A stretch of 64,000 bases of DNA from a virus (IMGVR_UViG_3300033072_000683:18751-82750), one strand, 5' to 3'; counted from the first letter of the stretch, positions 14,075-55,648 are shown. Notes: generated from the letters alone by a model not told the origin. Translations and numbers: made by a program.

Positions 14075-14944
14075 ATGGACGTAACTTTTCACAAATTGTA
14101 TCTTTATGACCACGTAAGGGAACTACTTCTGGTAGGTGATACATTCTGCCCATGTAAGGATAATGGACCTATGCACAAAAATCCGATAAAGGCACATAAG
14201 GGCGTTGATAACAAGATTATTTTCAGGGCCCTTCAACCAGATAGATCGCCAGCCACTGTTGATTGCGATCAACAAATTTATGCACGAATTGTCGATCCTA
14301 AAAATAGAAAGATTGTCCTAGAAAAACTTTGCCGCCTAGGCCCTGCAAAAGGGTTGATTACGTTGATTCTTGACGAGGGCGACATTGTTGATGTTCATGC
14401 CGGTCTTTACGAAATGGTTCTAATTAGAACAGAAAATTTCGTAGCAGGTGTAAATGATTATATTGTACAGAAGCCATTGTACTCGGACATGTACGATAAT
14501 ATTTCAATGGAAATTGAAATAACTGAGCAAGCATTCAAAGCTCCTTTGCAGCCTTTTGTTTTGAATCCCGAAGACTGGACATCAGACATTCTTATCCCTA
14601 CTTTTGGTCCACCTACACCTTGCTTCTATTCGCCTCGAATTCCCGGTGCAAGAGTACAGAACCATAAGGAATCGGTGCATACCTTCTCGACCTACACTCA
14701 AAACTTTACGGGTGTTCTCGAGATTTGGGGTTCTCTCGAAGAGACTCCGGATCCATATCTTAACCATGCAAGATGGTTCAAGATTTTTCCATCTACAATG
14801 TCTACAGATATTCAATTCTTTGCCTATACAGGTACACAGGCATGGACATTCTCTGCAGACTTCATGTGGTTGAAATTTAGATATTTCCCATCGACCGAAG
14901 TCCTTGATCCGGGCATTATGAAGAAGTTAATTGTTCGAACATAA
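14075..14944 (+). CDS. hypothetical beta-rich virion protein
   Basis: 289-aa ORF, late promoter. Confidence 0.6.
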   Translation: MDVTFHKLYLYDHVRELLLVGDTFCPCKDNGPMHKNPIKAHKGVDNKIIFRALQPDRSPATVDCDQQIYARIVDPKNRKIVLEKLCRLGPAKGLITLILDEGDIVDVHAGLYEMVLIRTENFVAGVNDYIVQKPLYSDMYDNISMEIEITEQAFKAPLQPFVLNPEDWTSDILIPTFGPPTPCFYSPRIPGARVQNHKESVHTFSTYTQNFTGVLEIWGSLEETPDPYLNHARWFKIFPSTMSTDIQFFAYTGTQAWTFSADFMWLKFRYFPSTEVLDPGIMKKLIVRT

Positions 14945-22389: not shown

Positions 22390-22962
22390 ATGGTTTTCAG
22401 AGTTAACGGTGGCATCATCAATGACCAAACATTGACTGGTGGCATGAGATTTTTCAAGATTACAGGCCCGTTTGCATGGACCGTTTCAAATGGTTCGGTC
22501 AACTTGCCAGTAGTTTTCAATGGTGGTGATCCTTTGATCACAAGTTATTTCGTAGTAGGTAACAATAGACCTGTTCCAAACAGTGCAGCTGAAATTGTTC
22601 TAAAAGAAATTAGCAAGAAGGCAGATATTGTCCTTGTAGGATTAATGCCTAATACATACGGTGCAACAACAGAACTTCATATTGGTGTTTCTGCTTCAGC
22701 GTTTGGTTGGGGCTCTGACGTTCCTGCATATGATGTTCCTCCAGCTAATGCGGACGAAGAACAATTGCCAACCTCCCCAACGGCAGCGGCAACACAAATG
22801 CAAGCAGCAATTCAAGCATTGCCAAATGCAACAGTTTATGTTTCTGTAGGTGCCCCAAACCCATTGACAGCACCTGTTACCGCAGTTGCAGCATTTGGTG
22901 CATGCACAGTAACAGAAGTTTCTTTCTCGCTAGGAACTGCTACATATTACAATTTGGCATAA
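22390..22962 (+). CDS. probable virion structural protein, paralogue 2 of 4
   Basis: Shares the N-terminal pattern and PVPNSAAEI with the next gene. Confidence 0.65.
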   Translation: MVFRVNGGIINDQTLTGGMRFFKITGPFAWTVSNGSVNLPVVFNGGDPLITSYFVVGNNRPVPNSAAEIVLKEISKKADIVLVGLMPNTYGATTELHIGVSASAFGWGSDVPAYDVPPANADEEQLPTSPTAAATQMQAAIQALPNATVYVSVGAPNPLTAPVTAVAAFGACTVTEVSFSLGTATYYNLA

Positions 22963-38006: not shown

Positions 38007-38347
38007 AGATTCTAAAATTTATTGGTTGGTGGTGGACTAGTCTTGGCACCGTCAATCAATGGGGCATTGGTATATCGTCAACACTGGTGACGTCTCTTAT
38101 CGGAGCATTTCTTTTTGGTCCGAAATTTCTTCTGGCAATTCTATCTCTTGCGCTGATGTTCCTGTTTTGCATAATGATCTATGCAATTTATAGGCTGGTC
38201 GAACAGAAGTGGAGTGAGTACAATCAGTATCTTGATTCTGAGCAACAAGAGGTGGTAGATAGATTGCGCGGATATACAGGCGGTATAGATCCTCCCACTG
38301 CATCGGAGCTTCTTGCAAAAATTCGTAAGCGTCAAGGTAAAGTTTGA
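38003..38347 (+). CDS. two-TM membrane protein
   Basis: Two hydrophobic segments, basic C-terminus. Confidence 0.65.
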   Translation: MKILKFIGWWWTSLGTVNQWGIGISSTLVTSLIGAFLFGPKFLLAILSLALMFLFCIMIYAIYRLVEQKWSEYNQYLDSEQQEVVDRLRGYTGGIDPPTASELLAKIRKRQGKV

Positions 38348-38371
38348 CCTAAAACACACAAGCCTTACACT
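38344..38371 (+). promoter_or_regulatory. sigma70-type promoter TTGACC-N16-TACACT, followed by late-type CTAAATA
   Basis: Upstream of the NMNAT-Nudix gene. Confidence 0.6.
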
Positions 38372-38431
38372 AAAGGCTAAATACTTACAGCAGAGAGACT
38401 GCTAACTTCAATAACTATTTGGGAGCCAAAT

Positions 38432-39487
38432 ATGTCCAAACGATTCAAGAGGGCCATCCTCATTGGCCGATTCGAACCAGCCCACAACGGGCACCTCGCT
38501 AACTTCCTACAAGGCTTTGAGATTGCTGACGAAGTAATCATCCTTCTGGGTAGTTCTTTCCAACCTCGCACGCCCAAGAATCCTTTTACTTGGCAAGAAC
38601 GAGATGAAATGATTGCCGATGCTATCACTGCGGCAGCACCTGGGAAGGTGTTTTCAATTCTTCCGATTCCTGACTTCAAGTACAGCAACAATGCCTGGAT
38701 TGCTGAAGTTCAGCGAGTTGTTCGCGAGCATGAACCCGATATTGATGACAAGGATATTGCTATCCTTGGTTACGATAAGGATGATTCCAGTTGGTACAAC
38801 CATGCTTTCCCTGAGTGGACTTTTGTTCCGCTGAAGGGCTTTGTCGAATTCGGTTCCAAGCCGATTGACGCTACCAAGGTGCGTGAACTGTTCTTTGAAG
38901 GTCACCTCGATTTCATGCGCAGTGCCGTTCCGGAGCCTGTCTTCAAGTATATGCAGAATTGGGCCAAGACCCCTGCATACCAACAAATGGTGGAAGAATA
39001 TGTCTTCTACAAGGATTACCACAAGAAGTGGGATCCCGCTCCTTTTGTGCCTATCTTCCAGACTACTGACGCAGTGGTTATTCAAGGTGGTCACATTCTT
39101 CTTATCGAGCGAGGTCACTCGCCCGGTAAGGGACTTTGGGCACTGCCCGGTGGCTTCCTGAATCCTCGCGAGACTATCGAAGATTGCATGGTCCGCGAAC
39201 TGTTGGAAGAAACCAAAATCAAGGTCCCCGAGATTGTCCTGCGTAAATCGATTACCTATCACAAGGTCTTTGATCATCCGGATCGCGACCTGCGTGGTCG
39301 CACTATCACGCAGGCATATCTGGTTGAGCTGACCGGCGGTGACGGCAAGCTTCCAAAGGTGAAGGGAGCCGACGATGCCAAGAAAGCCGAATGGTTCAAA
39401 CTTTCCGAAATTGATACCATGGGCGAGATGATCTACGCAGATCACCAACACATTATCCAAACGCTGGTAGCCCGCGCAAGGAAGTGA
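38432..39487 (+). CDS. bifunctional NMN adenylyltransferase / ADP-ribose pyrophosphatase (NadM-Nudix, NatV-like)
   Basis: GRFEPAHNGH, RTPKNPF, Nudix box GGFLNPRET…RELLEET, DHQHII. Confidence 0.92.
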   Translation: MSKRFKRAILIGRFEPAHNGHLANFLQGFEIADEVIILLGSSFQPRTPKNPFTWQERDEMIADAITAAAPGKVFSILPIPDFKYSNNAWIAEVQRVVREHEPDIDDKDIAILGYDKDDSSWYNHAFPEWTFVPLKGFVEFGSKPIDATKVRELFFEGHLDFMRSAVPEPVFKYMQNWAKTPAYQQMVEEYVFYKDYHKKWDPAPFVPIFQTTDAVVIQGGHILLIERGHSPGKGLWALPGGFLNPRETIEDCMVRELLEETKIKVPEIVLRKSITYHKVFDHPDRDLRGRTITQAYLVELTGGDGKLPKVKGADDAKKAEWFKLSEIDTMGEMIYADHQHIIQTLVARARK

Positions 39488-39488
39488 T

Positions 39489-39725
39489 ATGTGGTATGTC
39501 GCGATTGAGCGTATCAATGGGAGATACAAGTTTGCCGAAATTGTCGACAAACTGCAAATTCGCGGCTTCGAAGATAGAGTGGAATATTCCGAGGGCGGCT
39601 GGCAAGATTATATGTTGCATACAGTCTTGCCACACCTGAAGTTTGATTGCGAAGACGACGCCTTAGCATATGTTCTTGCATTTGGCGGAGAGGTTAGTAA
39701 AGAATTACCGATAAGGCTAACATAA
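39489..39725 (+). CDS. small hypothetical protein
   Basis: 78 aa, FDCEDDALAYVLAF motif. Confidence 0.6.
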   Translation: MWYVAIERINGRYKFAEIVDKLQIRGFEDRVEYSEGGWQDYMLHTVLPHLKFDCEDDALAYVLAFGGEVSKELPIRLT

Positions 39726-39735
39726 GGAGTTTATT

Positions 39736-40062
39736 ATGCCTTGCAGAGATTATATGGATGACAACAGACCCGACCCTCAGGTCGGTGTCTTGAAGGACCG
39801 TTGCAACAAGCTTTCGCGCATTGCGTGTAAGGCATTGGAACATATCGAGAAGTCCGGAGACGGACTTGAGATTCTGATCCTTCAGGATCCGGAAATTCAA
39901 GAATGGTGGACTGCTCATAAGGAAGCAGATCGCCAACAACGGGAAGAAGAAGCACGACGTCGAGCGGCTGCGGCTGAAAAACGTCGCCTGGCAAAAATTA
40001 AGGAAGAAACGCTTGCGACTTTGACCCCGGATCAGATTAAGGCGCTTGGTCTGAAGAAGTGA
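39736..40062 (+). CDS. hypothetical protein
   Basis: 108 aa, strong SD. Confidence 0.65.
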   Translation: MPCRDYMDDNRPDPQVGVLKDRCNKLSRIACKALEHIEKSGDGLEILILQDPEIQEWWTAHKEADRQQREEEARRRAAAAEKRRLAKIKEETLATLTPDQIKALGLKK

Positions 40063-40304
40063 TTTATTTCGTTTATTCGGACACAGTACAGAAACATGCA
40101 GGCTTTCCGGAAATTGGGTCAATCAACAAGAATTCCAAATTTGCTGATTTAAGATTCAAAGAGAAAGCAATGGCAGAATCTATATTCACTTTCGAAAACG
40201 GAAAGACAGTTTATATGAAGAACAGACATGATGCACTACCAAATGGATATCAGTTTTCCGAAGAGGAAAGATTGGTAATTGTGCTGAAGGCTGTTCCTCT
40301 ATAA
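40059..40304 (+). CDS. small hypothetical protein
   Basis: 81 aa, GTG start. Confidence 0.55.
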   Translation: MIYFVYSDTVQKHAGFPEIGSINKNSKFADLRFKEKAMAESIFTFENGKTVYMKNRHDALPNGYQFSEEERLVIVLKAVPL

Positions 40305-40354
40305 GAAAGTCCTAACAGGGAGTTAGGCATTTAACTGATAAGGAGTTTATCATC

Positions 40355-41737
40355 ATGAAATTTGCAAAGAACATCATTCTCAACAGCGATAGTTACAAGT
40401 ACAGCCAGTGGGTGCAATATCCTATGGGCACCGAATACGTTTACTCGTACATCGAGTCCCGCGGCGGCGAATACGACAAGCTGGTTTTTATCGGCCTCCA
40501 AGCTTTCCTTCGTGAGTACATGACCACACCGGTTACCAAAGCAATGGTTGACCAGGCGGAAATGATTCTGAAGGCGCATGGTGAGCCGTTTAACCGCGAA
40601 GGTTGGGACTATATCGTGCGTGAGCACGGTGGCCGTCTCCCTGTCGAAATCAAGTCCGTGGACGAGGGTTCGGTAATGCGTCTGAAGAACGTGCTTGTTT
40701 CGATTGTCAACACTGATCCGAAGTGCTACTGGCTGACCAGCTTCTTGGAAACTGCCCTGCTTCGCGCAATCTGGTATCCTACCACTGTGTGCAGCAACAG
40801 CTACCATAGCAAGGAAATCATCCAAGAATTCCTGAACCGCAATGGCGATCCTTCGCTCATTGACTTCAAGTTGCATGATTTCGGTGCTCGCGGAGTGTCG
40901 AGCCTGGAAAGTGCTGCATTGGGTGGTATGGCACACCTGGTTAACTTCATGGGCACCGACACTGTGTCGGGAATCATGGCTGCGATGGAATACTACGACG
41001 CACAAGTCTGTGGTTTCAGCATTCCTGCCATGGAGCACAGTACCGTTACCAGCTGGGGTCGTGAGAACGAAGTTGAAGCATATCGCAACATGCTGAAGCA
41101 CTATGGTAAGCCTGGTGCCTTGCTTGCTTGCGTGAGCGACAGCTATGACATCTACAAGGCTTGCGAGAAGTGGGGAACTGAGCTGAAGCAGGAAGTGATC
41201 GATAGTGGCGCGGTGGTTGTTGTCCGTCCGGACAGCGGCGATCCTGTTCAAGTCGTGAACGATTGCCTGCGAATCCTTGATAAGCACTACGGCCACACTG
41301 TGAATGCCAAGGGCTACAAGGTGCTGAACAACGTTCGCATCATCCAAGGTGACGGTATCAATCATCAAATGATTCGTGCCATCCTGACGGTGATGGATCT
41401 GAACGGCTACAGCGCCGACAACGTAGCTTTCGGTCAAGGCGGTGCGCTGCTCCAACAAATCAACCGCGACACACTTCAGTTCGCTATGAAGTGCTCGGCC
41501 GCCAAGATTGCTGGTAAGTGGGTGGAAGTGTATAAGGATCCTGTTACGTCTTCGATGAAGAAGAGCAAGAAGGGCCGTTTGATGCTCGTCACCGGACCGA
41601 ATGGTGAATTTGTTACCAAGAACCTGGAATTTGGCACCGAAATCGATCTGCTGAAGACCCGCTTCATGGATGGCAAGCTCTACAACGAGACCACATTCGA
41701 TCAGGTTCGTGCGTTGGCTAAGGAGACTGTTCGCTAA
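40355..41737 (+). CDS. nadV: nicotinamide phosphoribosyltransferase
   Basis: SDSYKYSQ, HDFGARG, PAMEHS, SDSYD, RPDSGDP, IQGDG, FGQGGALLQ. Confidence 0.93.
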   Translation: MKFAKNIILNSDSYKYSQWVQYPMGTEYVYSYIESRGGEYDKLVFIGLQAFLREYMTTPVTKAMVDQAEMILKAHGEPFNREGWDYIVREHGGRLPVEIKSVDEGSVMRLKNVLVSIVNTDPKCYWLTSFLETALLRAIWYPTTVCSNSYHSKEIIQEFLNRNGDPSLIDFKLHDFGARGVSSLESAALGGMAHLVNFMGTDTVSGIMAAMEYYDAQVCGFSIPAMEHSTVTSWGRENEVEAYRNMLKHYGKPGALLACVSDSYDIYKACEKWGTELKQEVIDSGAVVVVRPDSGDPVQVVNDCLRILDKHYGHTVNAKGYKVLNNVRIIQGDGINHQMIRAILTVMDLNGYSADNVAFGQGGALLQQINRDTLQFAMKCSAAKIAGKWVEVYKDPVTSSMKKSKKGRLMLVTGPNGEFVTKNLEFGTEIDLLKTRFMDGKLYNETTFDQVRALAKETVR

Positions 41738-41761
41738 ATATCCCCGTGCAAACGGAGGATA
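41734..41761 (+). promoter_or_regulatory. late promoter CTAAATA overlapping an SD-sequestering GCAA-tetraloop hairpin
   Basis: TATCCCCGT-GCAA-ACGGAGGATA (one bulged A). Confidence 0.65.
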
Positions 41762-41763
41762 AC

Positions 41764-42858
41764 ATGACAAAAGTAGCAGTATTAGGTGCAGGACAAATCG
41801 GCAGAGCAGTTTACAAAATTCTAACTACACTGCGCGAGGAGTCCGACACCTATGATTTGGAAGCTTTTGTTGTTGATTCCAGACGAGACAGCATCTCTGA
41901 ACTGACATATGGGTCCCACTTTCTAGTGGACCTTATGGAAGTAGATGTAGCAGATTTGGTCAAACTATTGACCGAACAGAAGGTAACGCATGTCATAAAT
42001 GCGTTACCTTTCTTTTTGAATGAAAAAGCGGCATCTGCAGCCGCTCAGGCAAATTGCCATTATATTGACTTCACTGAAGATGATAAGATGGCAGATCGTG
42101 TTCAAGAAATCTTTAAAGGCAAAGGTCTTCATTGTGCTGTAAAATGTGGACTTGCACCGGGCTTTATCAACTATGTTGGATACAACCTAGTTGGCAAAAT
42201 TGATACACCTGACTCACTATTGATTAGCGTAGGTGCATTGCCGAGAATGGTTTCTTATGGCGCAAATGAACCAGAGCATTCGTATAATCTAACCTGGAGT
42301 GTGGATGGACTTGTCAACGAGTACATTCGTCCTTGCAGAATTAGAAGAAGGGGTGTAGAAGAGGAAGTTGCCCCTCTAACGGGACAAGTTAAGGTTGTTC
42401 TAGACGGAACTGAGTATGAAGCAGCCTACACTTCAGGCGGTGTGGGAAGTCTCGTCCGTGACCTTAAGGATGTTCCTAATGTCTGCTATATGACATTGAG
42501 ATATCCGGGCCATTACCGCTTTGTTAGGGGAGTGGTGCAGGATAAGCTAAACGACTTTGAGAAGATTAAGAAAGTTTTCTTAAAGAAGTTCCCATTCACT
42601 GATGACGATGTTATTGTGGTGTATGCTGACGCCCAAGGTGTCAATAATGGTCAACTGACAAGGAGATCATACTACAATAAGTTCTACGGTGTAGATGGTT
42701 TGACTGGAATTCAGGCAACAACCGCCGGCTCGGGAGTGGCTATGTTGGAATTAATGCTTACAGGAAAGGTAAACGGACTTGTAACACATTCTACAGTAAG
42801 CCTGGAAGAATTCTGTAATACAGAAGCCTTCAAACGATACTATAAGACCGGTAAGTGA
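41764..42858 (+). CDS. saccharopine/lysine-6-dehydrogenase family oxidoreductase
   Basis: VLGAGQIG, VINALPF, HYIDFT, CGLAPG, YNLTWSVDGLVNEY, TLRYPGH. Confidence 0.85.
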   Translation: MTKVAVLGAGQIGRAVYKILTTLREESDTYDLEAFVVDSRRDSISELTYGSHFLVDLMEVDVADLVKLLTEQKVTHVINALPFFLNEKAASAAAQANCHYIDFTEDDKMADRVQEIFKGKGLHCAVKCGLAPGFINYVGYNLVGKIDTPDSLLISVGALPRMVSYGANEPEHSYNLTWSVDGLVNEYIRPCRIRRRGVEEEVAPLTGQVKVVLDGTEYEAAYTSGGVGSLVRDLKDVPNVCYMTLRYPGHYRFVRGVVQDKLNDFEKIKKVFLKKFPFTDDDVIVVYADAQGVNNGQLTRRSYYNKFYGVDGLTGIQATTAGSGVAMLELMLTGKVNGLVTHSTVSLEEFCNTEAFKRYYKTGK

Positions 42859-42881
42859 AAAGGGCCCTTCGGGGCCCTTTT
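42858..42881. terminator. bidirectional intrinsic terminator between convergent genes
   Basis: AAAAGGGCCC-TTCG-GGGCCCTTTT. Confidence 0.92.
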
Positions 42882-44653
42882 CATAGTCCTGCGTAAATCT
42901 TAAAGTGTCTTGGTGGCATACCATGCTTTCTAACATAGAAATCGAATGCCCACTTTACACCATGTGTATCGATGGTATCTTTGACTAGGTCACTGAGCCT
43001 TACGTCGCCCTTGCCCCAAGTCGATGACTTAGGAGCTTTTGCGTATTTTTGTGGATCTCCCTGCCAAGGACCCTGGTAAACTTCGTCGACTTCTCTATTG
43101 TGTGCAACAGTGAGTCCGGGCTTACCCATCTTAACCATATCGCCCTTACCCTGTACAACACCCTGGAAGATTAGAGGAAATGCTGCGGTATCATTGTCGA
43201 TAGGTTCTTTTCCACCTAATAGATATCTTCCGTTAGGTTGTAAACCAAGTGAATTAGCTTCATTTGCAGATAGACCTACCATCGGTAATCCAGTTGTGGT
43301 AGCAGTCATCTTGTGCTTTTGATTTCTAATATGAGTTCTCTTGAATCCGTTTTGTGGTTCAGTAGAAACATAGATCATCGGGGTATTACCATTCTTATCA
43401 AACATGATATAGAGTGTTTCTCCACCCGGGGCAAATTCTCTTGCAAAATCAACGTTGAAGTCAATTGTTACGTTGGAACTAGCTTGTTGCTTGGTGCCAC
43501 CGCCAGACTTAATCCATTCTTCTGCATCTGCTACAGCATCCTTGTCCGACATGGATTCGCCACGCTTAACTTCTTCGTGCTTCTTATTCAATACAAGCCA
43601 GGTTACCTTATCGCCTGGGTTTGATGCTGGACGGTAACGAATTGTCCAACCGTGGAACGGAATATCCTTTACTGGCTTTTTCTTAGCAGCCTGGTCGTCT
43701 GCGTGTTGGCGCTGAAGTATGGATGAAAAATCATCTTCCTCGAGGAAGCCCGATAGTCTTTCCTCGTATGTAGCACCATGATGGCGTGTATTAATTTGAC
43801 CGTATTTTGGTTTGTTTCCAGAACGATCGCCAGTTTTTGCATCAATCTTATCGCCGGCCTGCTTAAATCCTACAACCGACTTAGCAAGTTTTCTTAATGG
43901 GCGAGTTTGTACAGCACCGGGCGATGTTACCGCTTTACGGTATTTTTGCATTGTGTCGACACTCAATTCGTCGGTGCGTCTTGCTTCATTCCACATAGCC
44001 ATAACTTCGTCAAGAACCTTTTCGTAGCTTACGTCCTGTGCTGGTGCAGAACGATTAATTCCGCCCATACCGCCATCGGATAGTTTCTCAACAACAGTTA
44101 CATTGTCTATTGGTGCTCTCATTAGACGACCATCTTCGGTTCTGAATAGAACAGCAGTAAATCCATTATGTGGTTCAATCCTTTCAACCTTGCCAGTCAT
44201 TTGCATCTTTTTGGTACGAACGGTATCGCCAATCTCCGGCATTTCACTAGCATCTTCGTCAAGGCTTGCATTCATGTCGGCATCGTATTGTCTCTTCATT
44301 TCGTCGTAATAATCATAGATATCCTTGAAGCCATTTTTCTGTGCAGCCTTATCAAGAATTTCTCCAATTTTGTAGTCTGTGATTCCTTGCTTCTGCAACC
44401 ATGGTCCTAGCCAATCGATAGGGTCTCCATCGGGGAAGATATTTGCGACAACCTCCTCGACTTTTCTCCAGACTGTGTCTAAATCCAATGCTGGCTTCTT
44501 TGGTGCTGCAGGAGCAGGTGCCGGCTTCTGTGGCTTTGCATAGGATTGAGACCATGCATCTCGGCCAGCAGTATCGGATGTCTTAAATCTCTTTTCAACT
44601 CCATCAAGGGATTTAGCAACCCAATTACCTTCTGAAATCTGATCTAGTTTCAT
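42881..44653 (-). CDS. modular acidic head/internal protein
   Basis: 590 aa, MKLDQISE start, modules separated by LDE/LEE/VDE, own late promoter. Confidence 0.65.
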   Translation of the reverse strand: MKLDQISEGNWVAKSLDGVEKRFKTSDTAGRDAWSQSYAKPQKPAPAPAAPKKPALDLDTVWRKVEEVVANIFPDGDPIDWLGPWLQKQGITDYKIGEILDKAAQKNGFKDIYDYYDEMKRQYDADMNASLDEDASEMPEIGDTVRTKKMQMTGKVERIEPHNGFTAVLFRTEDGRLMRAPIDNVTVVEKLSDGGMGGINRSAPAQDVSYEKVLDEVMAMWNEARRTDELSVDTMQKYRKAVTSPGAVQTRPLRKLAKSVVGFKQAGDKIDAKTGDRSGNKPKYGQINTRHHGATYEERLSGFLEEDDFSSILQRQHADDQAAKKKPVKDIPFHGWTIRYRPASNPGDKVTWLVLNKKHEEVKRGESMSDKDAVADAEEWIKSGGGTKQQASSNVTIDFNVDFAREFAPGGETLYIMFDKNGNTPMIYVSTEPQNGFKRTHIRNQKHKMTATTTGLPMVGLSANEANSLGLQPNGRYLLGGKEPIDNDTAAFPLIFQGVVQGKGDMVKMGKPGLTVAHNREVDEVYQGPWQGDPQKYAKAPKSSTWGKGDVRLSDLVKDTIDTHGVKWAFDFYVRKHGMPPRHFKIYAGL

Positions 44654-54614: not shown

Positions 54615-54649
54615 CATAAATATGCGAAACACAGGAGGTTTCGCATATG
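54615..54649 (+). promoter_or_regulatory. late promoter CATAAATA overlapping an 11-bp hairpin covering SD and ATG
   Basis: ATATGCGAAAC-ACAGGAG-GTTTCGCATAT. Confidence 0.8.
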
Positions 54650-55648
54650 AAGAAACGTGCTCTTATCGTAGGCATCAACTATGTCGGTACAGGTAACGAC
54701 TTAAAGGGATGCATCAATGATGCTAATAATGTAAACGAGTTTCTAAAATCTCAAGGGTTCGATGATATAAAACTCGTTCTTGAACAAGAAGCTACTACTG
54801 CCGGTATTAAAGCTGGGCTTGAATGGCTTGTCTCGGGCGCACAACCCGGCGATATGTTATATTTCCACTATAGTGGTCATGGTTCACAGCTTCCGTCTAA
54901 GATTGAAACAGATGGTTTTGAAGAAATCATCTGTCCGTTTGACCTTAATTGGAGAGATAAGGTAATTACCGATGACACTCTAAGGCAAATTTTCAATAAA
55001 GTCCCCGGTGGAGTTAATACGACATTATTCCTGGATTGTTGTCATTCAGGAACTATGTTAGACCAGACACAATCTTTGGCTGAAACAAGAGACCTACAAG
55101 CGAAACCAAAGAAAACAAGAAAGAAAAAAGATTCTCGCTATCTAAAGCCGCCTGCAAGTGTATTAAAGAAGCTTGCTGACCGTGAATTGGTAGATTGGCA
55201 GACATCAAAGGATGTTAATAAAGATGCTCTATTGATTGCAGGGTGTCAAGAAAATCAAACTTCCGCCGATGCATTCATCGATGGTACATATCAGGGCGCC
55301 GCTACCGCATCTATGCTAAAAATTATGAAATCTTCGCCGGGACAAACATATAAGAGTTTGGTTGAAGAGATGCGAGATTTCATGAAGAGAAATGGATATA
55401 GTCAAATTCCCGACCTCGATGGTTCGCCTGCACTTTATGATACTAAATTCTTGCAACCTTTCTTTACGGAGGTGCCACCAGTTGCGGAAGAGATTGTTTC
55501 TCCGGAGCCGGTAGTGGTTGAACCACCTGCTCAAGATCCTGTAGAATTGCCTGTAACACAAGACGATAGCAAAAAAGATTCCAATAAGACATTAATTATT
55601 GCTGCCGTTGTTGTTGCTTTAATTCTGTTCGTTCTTTTTGCTGGTTAA
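54647..55648 (+). CDS. metacaspase (peptidase C14) with C-terminal membrane anchor
   Basis: ALIVGINY, LKGCINDA, HYSGHG (His), DCCHSG (Cys), Pro-rich linker, terminal TM helix. Confidence 0.92.
   Translation: MKKRALIVGINYVGTGNDLKGCINDANNVNEFLKSQGFDDIKLVLEQEATTAGIKAGLEWLVSGAQPGDMLYFHYSGHGSQLPSKIETDGFEEIICPFDLNWRDKVITDDTLRQIFNKVPGGVNTTLFLDCCHSGTMLDQTQSLAETRDLQAKPKKTRKKKDSRYLKPPASVLKKLADRELVDWQTSKDVNKDALLIAGCQENQTSADAFIDGTYQGAATASMLKIMKSSPGQTYKSLVEEMRDFMKRNGYSQIPDLDGSPALYDTKFLQPFFTEVPPVAEEIVSPEPVVVEPPAQDPVELPVTQDDSKKDSNKTLIIAAVVVALILFVLFAG

Follow-up and report, generated by a model that had tools for sequence, protein, structure and literature searches.

Leaders of the nadM-Nudix and nadV genes of a phage as copies of one conserved mRNA element, a candidate translational operator

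Why should two NAD genes of one phage each open with the same kind of paired hairpins, and what might read them? The genes, nadM-Nudix and nadV, lie within IMGVR_UViG_3300033072_000683:18751-82750, a stretch of viral DNA of 64,000 nt (the window, from whose first letter all positions are counted), which belongs to an 82.7-kb IMG/VR phage fragment that is estimated to be ~21% complete and has nearly all of its genes on the plus strand. Together they are a pair of the NARP2 type, for the reconstitution of nicotinamide adenine dinucleotide (NAD+). A preliminary description of the window had claimed that both genes carry the same structured leader, and this is borne out by covariation, by the specificity of a covariance model built on the leaders of both genes and by detection across the two gene families. 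On the comparative evidence, both leaders represent a single conserved mRNA element that acts in cis and travels with nadM-Nudix and nadV among phages and some Proteobacteria. We suggest, with a probability of roughly 0.55, that this element is a translational operator in which hairpin 2 would gate initiation and hairpin 1 would be the recognition site, a protein being the most likely reader.

The two leaders in the window

The genes and the parts of their leaders are listed here, with the evidence for each in brackets.

38389-38403, plus strand: nadM-Nudix leader, hairpin 1, AGCAG / AGAGA / CTGCT, 5 bp, pentaloop AGAGA at 38394-38398 (sequence, RNAfold, covariation in relatives)
38404-38415, plus strand: nadM-Nudix leader, linker, A/U-rich, with TAAC (38412-38415) at its end (sequence)
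38416-38432, plus strand: nadM-Nudix leader, hairpin 2, TATTTGG / GAG / CCAAATA, 7 bp, GAG triloop (sequence, RNAfold)
38432-39487, plus strand: nadM-Nudix, a natV-type bifunctional nicotinamide mononucleotide (NMN) adenylyltransferase-Nudix protein of 351 aa (Pfam CTP_transf_like, E 1.3e-8; NUDIX, E 1.2e-21)
40309-40328, plus strand: nadV leader, hairpin 1, CCTAAC / AGGGA / GTTAGG, 6 bp (40311-40327), pentaloop AGGGA at 40317-40321 (sequence, RNAfold, covariation in 21 nadV leaders)
40329-40335, plus strand: nadV leader, linker ATTTAAC, with TAAC at 40332-40335 (sequence; (A)UUUAAC is kept in many nadV leaders)
40336-40352, plus strand: nadV leader, hairpin 2, TGATAA / GGAGT / TTATCA, with the Shine-Dalgarno (SD) sequence in the loop (sequence, RNAfold, covarying in relatives)
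40355-41737, plus strand: nadV, nicotinamide phosphoribosyltransferase (NAMPT), 460 aa (Pfam NAMPT_N, E 2.2e-31; NAPRTase, E 1.2e-60)

In the nadM-Nudix leader the SD is partly paired within hairpin 2, the last A of the stem is also the A of the ATG at 38432, and the relatives L072 and L009 show a compensatory extra base pair in this hairpin. Hairpin 1 of nadV, which begins 5 nt past the stop codon of an open reading frame (ORF) at 40059-40304, can be extended by a G40309-C40328 pair across a bulged T/U, and between hairpin 2 of the same leader and the ATG at 40355 there are 2 nt. RNAfold folds both leaders into these hairpins, with unremarkable z-scores (-0.2 to -2.5). The hairpins, loops and TAAC of the preliminary description were found, on reading the sequence, exactly where it had placed them.

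Judged from the window alone, each half of the motif is weak evidence for the likeness of the two leaders, because ANNGA-loop hairpins are no more frequent than chance predicts, and 8 of the ~100 genes of this phage follow a hairpin of 5 bp or more that has the SD in its loop. For the former, again at 5 bp or more, 27 were observed in the 82.7-kb record against 21.9 expected from shuffled sequence, and in two related genomes of 333-385 kb they likewise stand at shuffled frequency. The longest SD-in-loop hairpin, of 11 bp and with the ATG inside its stem, lies at 54615-54650, before the gene 54647-55648. When the motif is taken whole, as a descriptor in which a short linker joins hairpin 1 to an SD hairpin (6 bp or more) and a start codon, its only matches are at nadM-Nudix and nadV, and this holds for the 82.7-kb record as for a 385-kb relative.

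Conservation and specificity of the element

The likeness of the leaders goes beyond chance because of what their relatives add: covariation, specific covariance-model matches, detection across the two gene families and unconstrained folding. NadV relatives, down to 28% identity, were drawn from 70 IMG/VR loci, in ~45 of which NadM-Nudix lies upstream on the same strand, and a common design is seen in some 70 nadV and nadM-Nudix leaders from IMG/VR phages and Proteobacteria. In hairpin 1 a stem of 5-9 bp covaries freely and carries a pentaloop (A/G)NNGA, which in most lineages is AUAGA closed by a G-C pair and which in the clade of the window is relaxed to A-N-N-G-A, with positions 2-3 varying freely. 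The linker between the hairpins is A/U-rich, G-poor, unstructured and variable. In hairpin 2 the SD reads G-GAG-Y and lies within or beside the loop, and the hairpin ends next to the AUG or extends into it. The spacing between hairpin 1 and the AUG varies little, and its median is 26 nt for nadV and nadM-Nudix alike. The pentaloop AGRGA of the preliminary description therefore holds for the two window leaders (AGAGA and AGGGA) but not for the family, in which AUAGA is dominant; the TAACT junction that was thought to be kept survives as an enrichment of UAAC in the linkers (19 of 70, against 7.8 expected) but does not define the element; the enrichment may stem from an A/U-rich enhancer or, in some nadV clades, from a boxA-like string. 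The SD-containing second hairpin, also described then, is indeed common to both leaders, and across 70 leaders helix 2 is 93% paired, with double changes at four of its five pairs.

The stems of the leaders differ at nearly every position and retain their pairing. Covarying arms of hairpin 2 comprise GAUAA/UUAUC, UUUAA/UUAAA, AAUAAA/UUUAUU, GUAAA/UUUAC, UAGA/UCUA and UUGAAA/UUUCAA. In an alignment of 21 nadV leaders, 96% of cells are paired (77% when shuffled) and 47 cells show double changes, where 11.8 would be expected; in the alignment of 70 leaders, which takes in both genes and both phage and bacterial copies, the figures are 87.8% paired against 54.4% shuffled and 280 double-change cells against 88, and slid controls are at most 54% paired. 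The loops had been picked by an NNNGA pattern, and circularity was checked by unconstrained folding of the region from -72 to -14 of dereplicated leaders, which gave a hairpin with a 5-nt NNNGA loop in 27 of 53 nadV and 21 of 38 nadM leaders and in 0-1 of the shifted controls inside genes. Each gene has its own copy of the leader even where the two adjoin (locus L036, Variovorax), second genes of operons included, and the loop type agrees between both leaders of one genome, being AUAGA/AUAGA in phages and GUUGA/GUUGA in Variovorax and Casimicrobium.

Other ways of drawing the structure were tried and rejected. Some clades have UCUAU or UUUAU in the 3' arm of hairpin 2, with which the AUAGA loop of hairpin 1 could form a pseudoknot or kissing contact; such a contact shows no covariation, and in the window's clade the two variable loop positions change while hairpin 2 is constant. 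Pairing of the linker UUUAAC with the 3' arm of hairpin 1 works in the window (GUUAG/UUAAC) and fails in relatives with a changed stem, such as L008. Nor can TAGAC/TTGAC in the loop be a -35 box, as a suitably spaced -10 box is lacking and only ~20 nt separate the sequence from the SD.

Specificity was assessed with three covariance models, built on nadV leaders with the window row included (R1), on the leaders of both genes (R2) and on the nadM leaders of other genomes only (R3). R1 scores the nadV leader of the window at 63.4 bits and, in each of five related phage genomes (229-385 kb), finds one strong match. Within the window R2 matches only 38387-38434 (33.8 bits) and 40310-40354 (31.6 bits), the next match standing at 16 bits, and over 529 kb of phage loci all 74 of its 74 matches (E<=0.5) are on the gene strand, before nadV, nadM or an ORF whose translation is coupled to that of nadM. 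R3, built without the window, gives its nadM leader 37.8 bits (E 1.7e-5); although trained on nadM, at E<0.5 it also recovers ~32 nadV leaders and no unrelated sequence. In a 3.7-Mb Methylococcaceae metagenome-assembled genome (MAG) the only model matches are at its two NAD leaders, and 150 further genomes of the same class gave no covariance-model match. With R2 no match at E<=10 was obtained in two whole 7-Mb Variovorax genomes, whose loci score ~30 bits when searched directly, so that the prefilter or the genome size limits this whole-genome test. A covariance model of homologue leaders had been proposed as the check on the two-leader motif, and by this check the motif stands upstream of many homologues, phage and bacterial; sought before unrelated genes by the descriptor scan and by R1 and R2 in the phage genomes, the loci and the 150 genomes, it was not found.

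As to the coupled ORFs, in two relatives the leader precedes a short ORF whose stop overlaps the nadM start (ATGGTAA, ATGA). The nadM-coupled ORF at L034:2322-2687 encodes 106 aa and has no Pfam match; that at L154:1611-1800 has ~45 codons, after which comes a hairpin that resembles a terminator and has a U7 run.

Among bacteria, isolates of Variovorax (many species), Casimicrobium, other Burkholderiales and Algicola carry the leader before both nadM-Nudix and nadV. In bacterial isolates the hairpin 1 loop is GUUGA, or else GCUGA or GUCGA; the AUAGA form is present on several MAG contigs, some of which are possibly phage. The Variovorax locus contains no phage genes and no adjoining regulator, its neighbours being an AlkZ-like glycosylase and a phosphatase. 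Some Variovorax nadM leaders (L130, L135 and others, ~1770-1841) have a G+C-rich GUUGA hairpin 1 followed by 5-6 U that also form the 5' arm of hairpin 2, a combination with the look of an attenuator or intrinsic terminator; this likeness is missing from the phage copies, and no sense-strand intrinsic terminator (a G+C-rich hairpin with a U tract) was found at either window leader. Among cultured phages, RsoM2USA, BUDD, IME-SM1, ValKK3, ACP17 and LPCS28 mostly keep the SD hairpin, several of them with a different hairpin 1 loop, and Mx1 has neither hairpin; the AUAGA form, sought in these seven, is degenerate or missing.

What may read the leader

The transcript on which the leader sits bears on how it could work. 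The features concerned are these.

38344-38371, plus strand: predicted sigma-70-like promoter (TTGACC, 16 nt, TACACT), from a consensus scan, with the same arrangement in relatives
38377-38383, plus strand: CTAAATA, T4-late-promoter-like, 5 nt upstream of nadM hairpin 1 (sequence)
Upstream of the genes at 22390, 23060, 25781, 44790, 46923 and 61207, and of 42881-44653 on the minus strand, among others: sites of the GATAAATA / CTAAATAC motif

Because predicted promoters end just before it (3-11 nt ahead in most phage leaders), hairpin 1 is predicted to lie at the extreme 5' end of the mRNA, with transcription starting within a few nt of its base; in 22 of 33 nadM leaders it is TAAATA that ends 3-9 nt before the hairpin. 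The T4 late promoter is TATAAATA, which CTAAATA resembles. The GATAAATA / CTAAATAC motif recurs 20-45 nt before many start codons of the window, often directly followed by a hairpin, and, if it is, as it looks, a T4-late-type promoter (TATAAATA), this phage may use a late sigma system of the gp55 kind. We rejected the view that the leader is a generic promoter-leader of the phage, since the full motif stands only at the two NAD genes, though a GATAAATA-type promoter followed by a hairpin is common. Two further observations concern the predicted nadM promoter: a hairpin AGCCTT/ACACTA/AAGGCT at 38361-38378 overlaps its -10 box, and the AAAGGCTAAATAC string following that box is conserved in close relatives.

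The anatomy proposed for the operator derives from the combination of a structured ribosome-binding site (RBS), hairpin 2, with a separate hairpin conserved only in its loop, which is the usual mark of recognition by a macromolecule. Hairpin 2 would have to melt before the 30S subunit could pair with the SD, which would keep the basal rate of initiation low; hairpin 1 would be a sequence-specific recognition site whose occupancy would alter either 30S access or the life of the mRNA, and through the shared leader both NAD enzymes would be throttled together. Very few nucleotides are conserved beyond one terminal loop and the SD, a pattern more like that of a protein-recognised operator than of a classical aptamer, and we put the chance that the reader is a protein at close to even. 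A third linked gene was rejected as the source of a regulator: small ORFs between nadM-Nudix and nadV are conserved only within the close clade and absent from bacterial loci, and in Variovorax the neighbours are the glycosylase and phosphatase already named. Since there is no such gene and the element moves with its genes across host classes, the reader would be an enzyme of the pair, a metabolite or universal machinery; on the simplest view a protein reader would be NadM-Nudix or NadV itself, exerting feedback. The preliminary description is supported in part: both genes do carry the same conserved, structured RNA, which is specific to the pair, and their co-regulation by a ligand or by the Nudix enzyme is a proposal.

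Operators read by proteins autogenously offer the nearest precedents, as at gene 43 of T4/RB69, the MS2 coat protein and E. coli thrS, and the iron-responsive element with its reader IRP1 is the precedent for a moonlighting enzyme. Like the leader, such operators are short hairpins with a variable stem and a sequence-specific loop near the SD or AUG, and they are small, portable and gene-specific, and in the leader too a bound reader would block initiation; unlike them, the leader consists of two separate hairpins, occurs as the same element on two enzyme genes and has no sequence similarity to them. Leaders bound by CsrA/RsmA likewise combine a hairpin loop at the SD with a second one ~20-30 nt upstream of it. 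CsrA, however, needs GGA in both loops, and in our leaders GGA is found in the hairpin 2 loop but in the hairpin 1 loop of only 5 of 70, one of which is the nadV leader of the window (AGGGA).

A number of observations weigh against the operator reading. Many bacterial nadV genes are without the motif, and Pfam gives no evident RNA-binding domain in NadM-Nudix or NadV. SD hairpins stand before unrelated genes too, and the leader design may in part be this phage's style of RBS. To judge from the cultured phages, the AUAGA loop is not needed everywhere, because RsoM2USA, BUDD, ValKK3 and IME-SM1 have other hairpin 1 loops or none. R3, moreover, gives the nadV leader of the window only 18.5 bits (E 0.13), in a tie with a minus-strand match, and because of this score we take that copy, with its C-G closing pair and AGGGA loop, to be a divergent member of the family. 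The minus-strand match itself (14532-14592; 18.5 bits, E 0.13) lies inside a plus-strand gene and is probably a false positive.

The leader might instead work without any effector, a 5'-terminal hairpin 1 blocking 5'-end-dependent decay, the linker serving as ribosome standby site or enhancer and hairpin 2 tuning initiation. The predicted start of transcription within a few nt of hairpin 1 agrees with such an element, as do the other window genes that have hairpins just after GATAAATA-type promoters or an SD in a hairpin loop, and the A/U-rich, G-poor linker, which often contains UUAAC, resembles the epsilon enhancer UUAACUUUA of T7 gene 10. A stabiliser needs no fixed loop, however, and AUAGA is kept in dozens of distant phages whose stems have diverged to saturation; the same loop type on both genes of a genome, the limitation of the motif to two genes per genome and the retention of own copies by second operon genes also speak against it, and we consider it rather unlikely.

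A minimal riboswitch, in which the pentaloop alone or together with the SD triloop would bind NAD+, NMN, nicotinamide, ADP-ribose or phosphoribosyl pyrophosphate (PRPP) and shift the stability of the SD hairpin, has in its favour that the element is self-contained, is confined to genes of one pathway and moves with them between phages and different classes of bacteria, as one would expect of a ligand sensor. The guanidine-II (mini-ykkC) riboswitch, in which a variable linker joins two small tandem hairpins, only the loops and their closing pairs are conserved and the SD lies close to the second hairpin, is a precedent for conservation of loops alone and resembles the leader in the tandem small hairpins, the variable linker and the place of hairpin 2. 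It differs in that its hairpins have identical, kissing ACGR loops; shared kissing loops of this kind were not found in the leaders, whose loops (AUAGA/ANNGA and GAG) are unlike and non-complementary, one of them varying between lineages. Very few nucleotides are conserved for a ligand-binding site: loop positions 2-3 are free in the window's clade, the AUAGA and GUUGA types switch across lineages, stem length, mismatches and linker are all variable, and there is no junction or internal loop able to form a pocket. A search with Rfam 15, NAD+ riboswitches included, gave no match at gathering score in the window and none at E<=1 in three related loci; between 38200 and 40500, at E<=10, it returned only four sub-threshold matches, to three small nucleolar RNAs and one small RNA (sRNA). 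The leader is thus unlike the NAD riboswitches, as the preliminary description had supposed from their consensus sequences. The NAD+-I (nadA) and NAD+-II (pnuC) riboswitches are likewise cis-regulatory 5' leaders on genes of NAD metabolism, and class II involves the SD, but their architecture and conserved nucleotides are different, as are the genes they regulate (nadA and pnuC, not nadV and nadM-Nudix). We therefore judge a riboswitch unlikely.

Other roles of an RNA, as an endoribonuclease processing site, an sRNA target or a nut/rrn-like antitermination site with a boxB-like hairpin and a boxA-like GCAAUUUAAC, seem to us very improbable. The string GGCA(A)UUUAAC that follows hairpin 1 in nadV leaders of several clades does resemble boxA (GCUCUUUAACAA), and leaders within operons could be processing sites; the boxA-like string, present as GCA(A)UUUAAC in many nadV leaders, is nevertheless absent from nadM leaders and bacterial copies, UAAC is found in only 27% of linkers, and an sRNA target is at odds with loop positions 2-3 that vary without a compensating partner.

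The nadM-nadV and prs-nadV operons have a known regulator, NrtR, whose DNA operators are palindromes of 21 bp in which the arms are conserved and the core is GT-N7-AC (Rodionov et al., 2008; PMC2330246). Like the leader these operators form an inverted repeat upstream of the same genes, but the arms of the leader covary. Chance resemblance, or an operator of this or another kind acting at the level of DNA, is hardly credible: each hairpin type is at chance frequency within the window and NrtR does act on these genes, but freely covarying arms around a fixed asymmetric loop are the signature of an RNA rather than of a palindrome bound by protein, reading of the leaders showed no GT-N7-AC core within a 21-bp palindrome, every model match (the probable false positive apart) is on the sense strand at a gene start, and neither the specificity of R2 nor the cross-family detection by R3 would be expected by chance.

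Neighbouring genes and biological meaning

Between the NAD genes, at 39736-40062, lies an ORF of 108 aa (beginning MPC) with relatives in 12 related loci and no Pfam match. Its own leader, at 39692-39738, has a covarying SD-in-loop hairpin without a hairpin 1 and is the third-best R2 match in the window (16 bits); a more distant look-alike of the ORF stands upstream of nadM in L034 (1448-1801). Directly after nadV, at 41746-42858, is a gene of the saccharopine dehydrogenase family (Pfam Sacchrp_dh_NADP/_C), whose position is kept in ~14 related phage loci.

NARP2 has recently been recognised as a phage counter-defence against NAD+-depleting immunity that comes at a metabolic cost: PRPP is consumed, NAD+ is overproduced, overexpression is toxic, and the KVP40 operon was toxic in E. 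coli (bioRxiv 10.1101/2024.02.11.579819). Because the pathway drains PRPP, overproduces NAD+ and can be toxic, a coordinated limitation of both enzymes by a common leader would be biologically sensible. Our literature searches for a nadV riboswitch or motif and for the regulation of NARP2 returned nothing relevant from the libraries covered.

The leader, being specific to the two genes, offers a direct handle on how NARP2 is regulated. At ~50 nt it is easy to mutate and to fuse to reporters, and it occurs in culturable Variovorax that are open to genetics. The motif merits an Rfam entry, which would improve the annotation of NAD-salvage loci in phages and bacteria. Were it read by a metabolite, it would be a new and unusually small class of riboswitch; were it read by one of the enzymes, translational feedback through an enzyme would gain a new example. 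Finally, and tentatively, since we hold it a little less likely than its opposite, the leader may be a portable sensor of NAD status, either as a minimal, loop-based riboswitch or as an operator read by a moonlighting NadM-Nudix or NadV in the manner of IRP1. Such a sensor would let phages and bacteria throttle the PRPP-consuming NARP2 pathway, and would let phages release it when host defence depletes NAD+.

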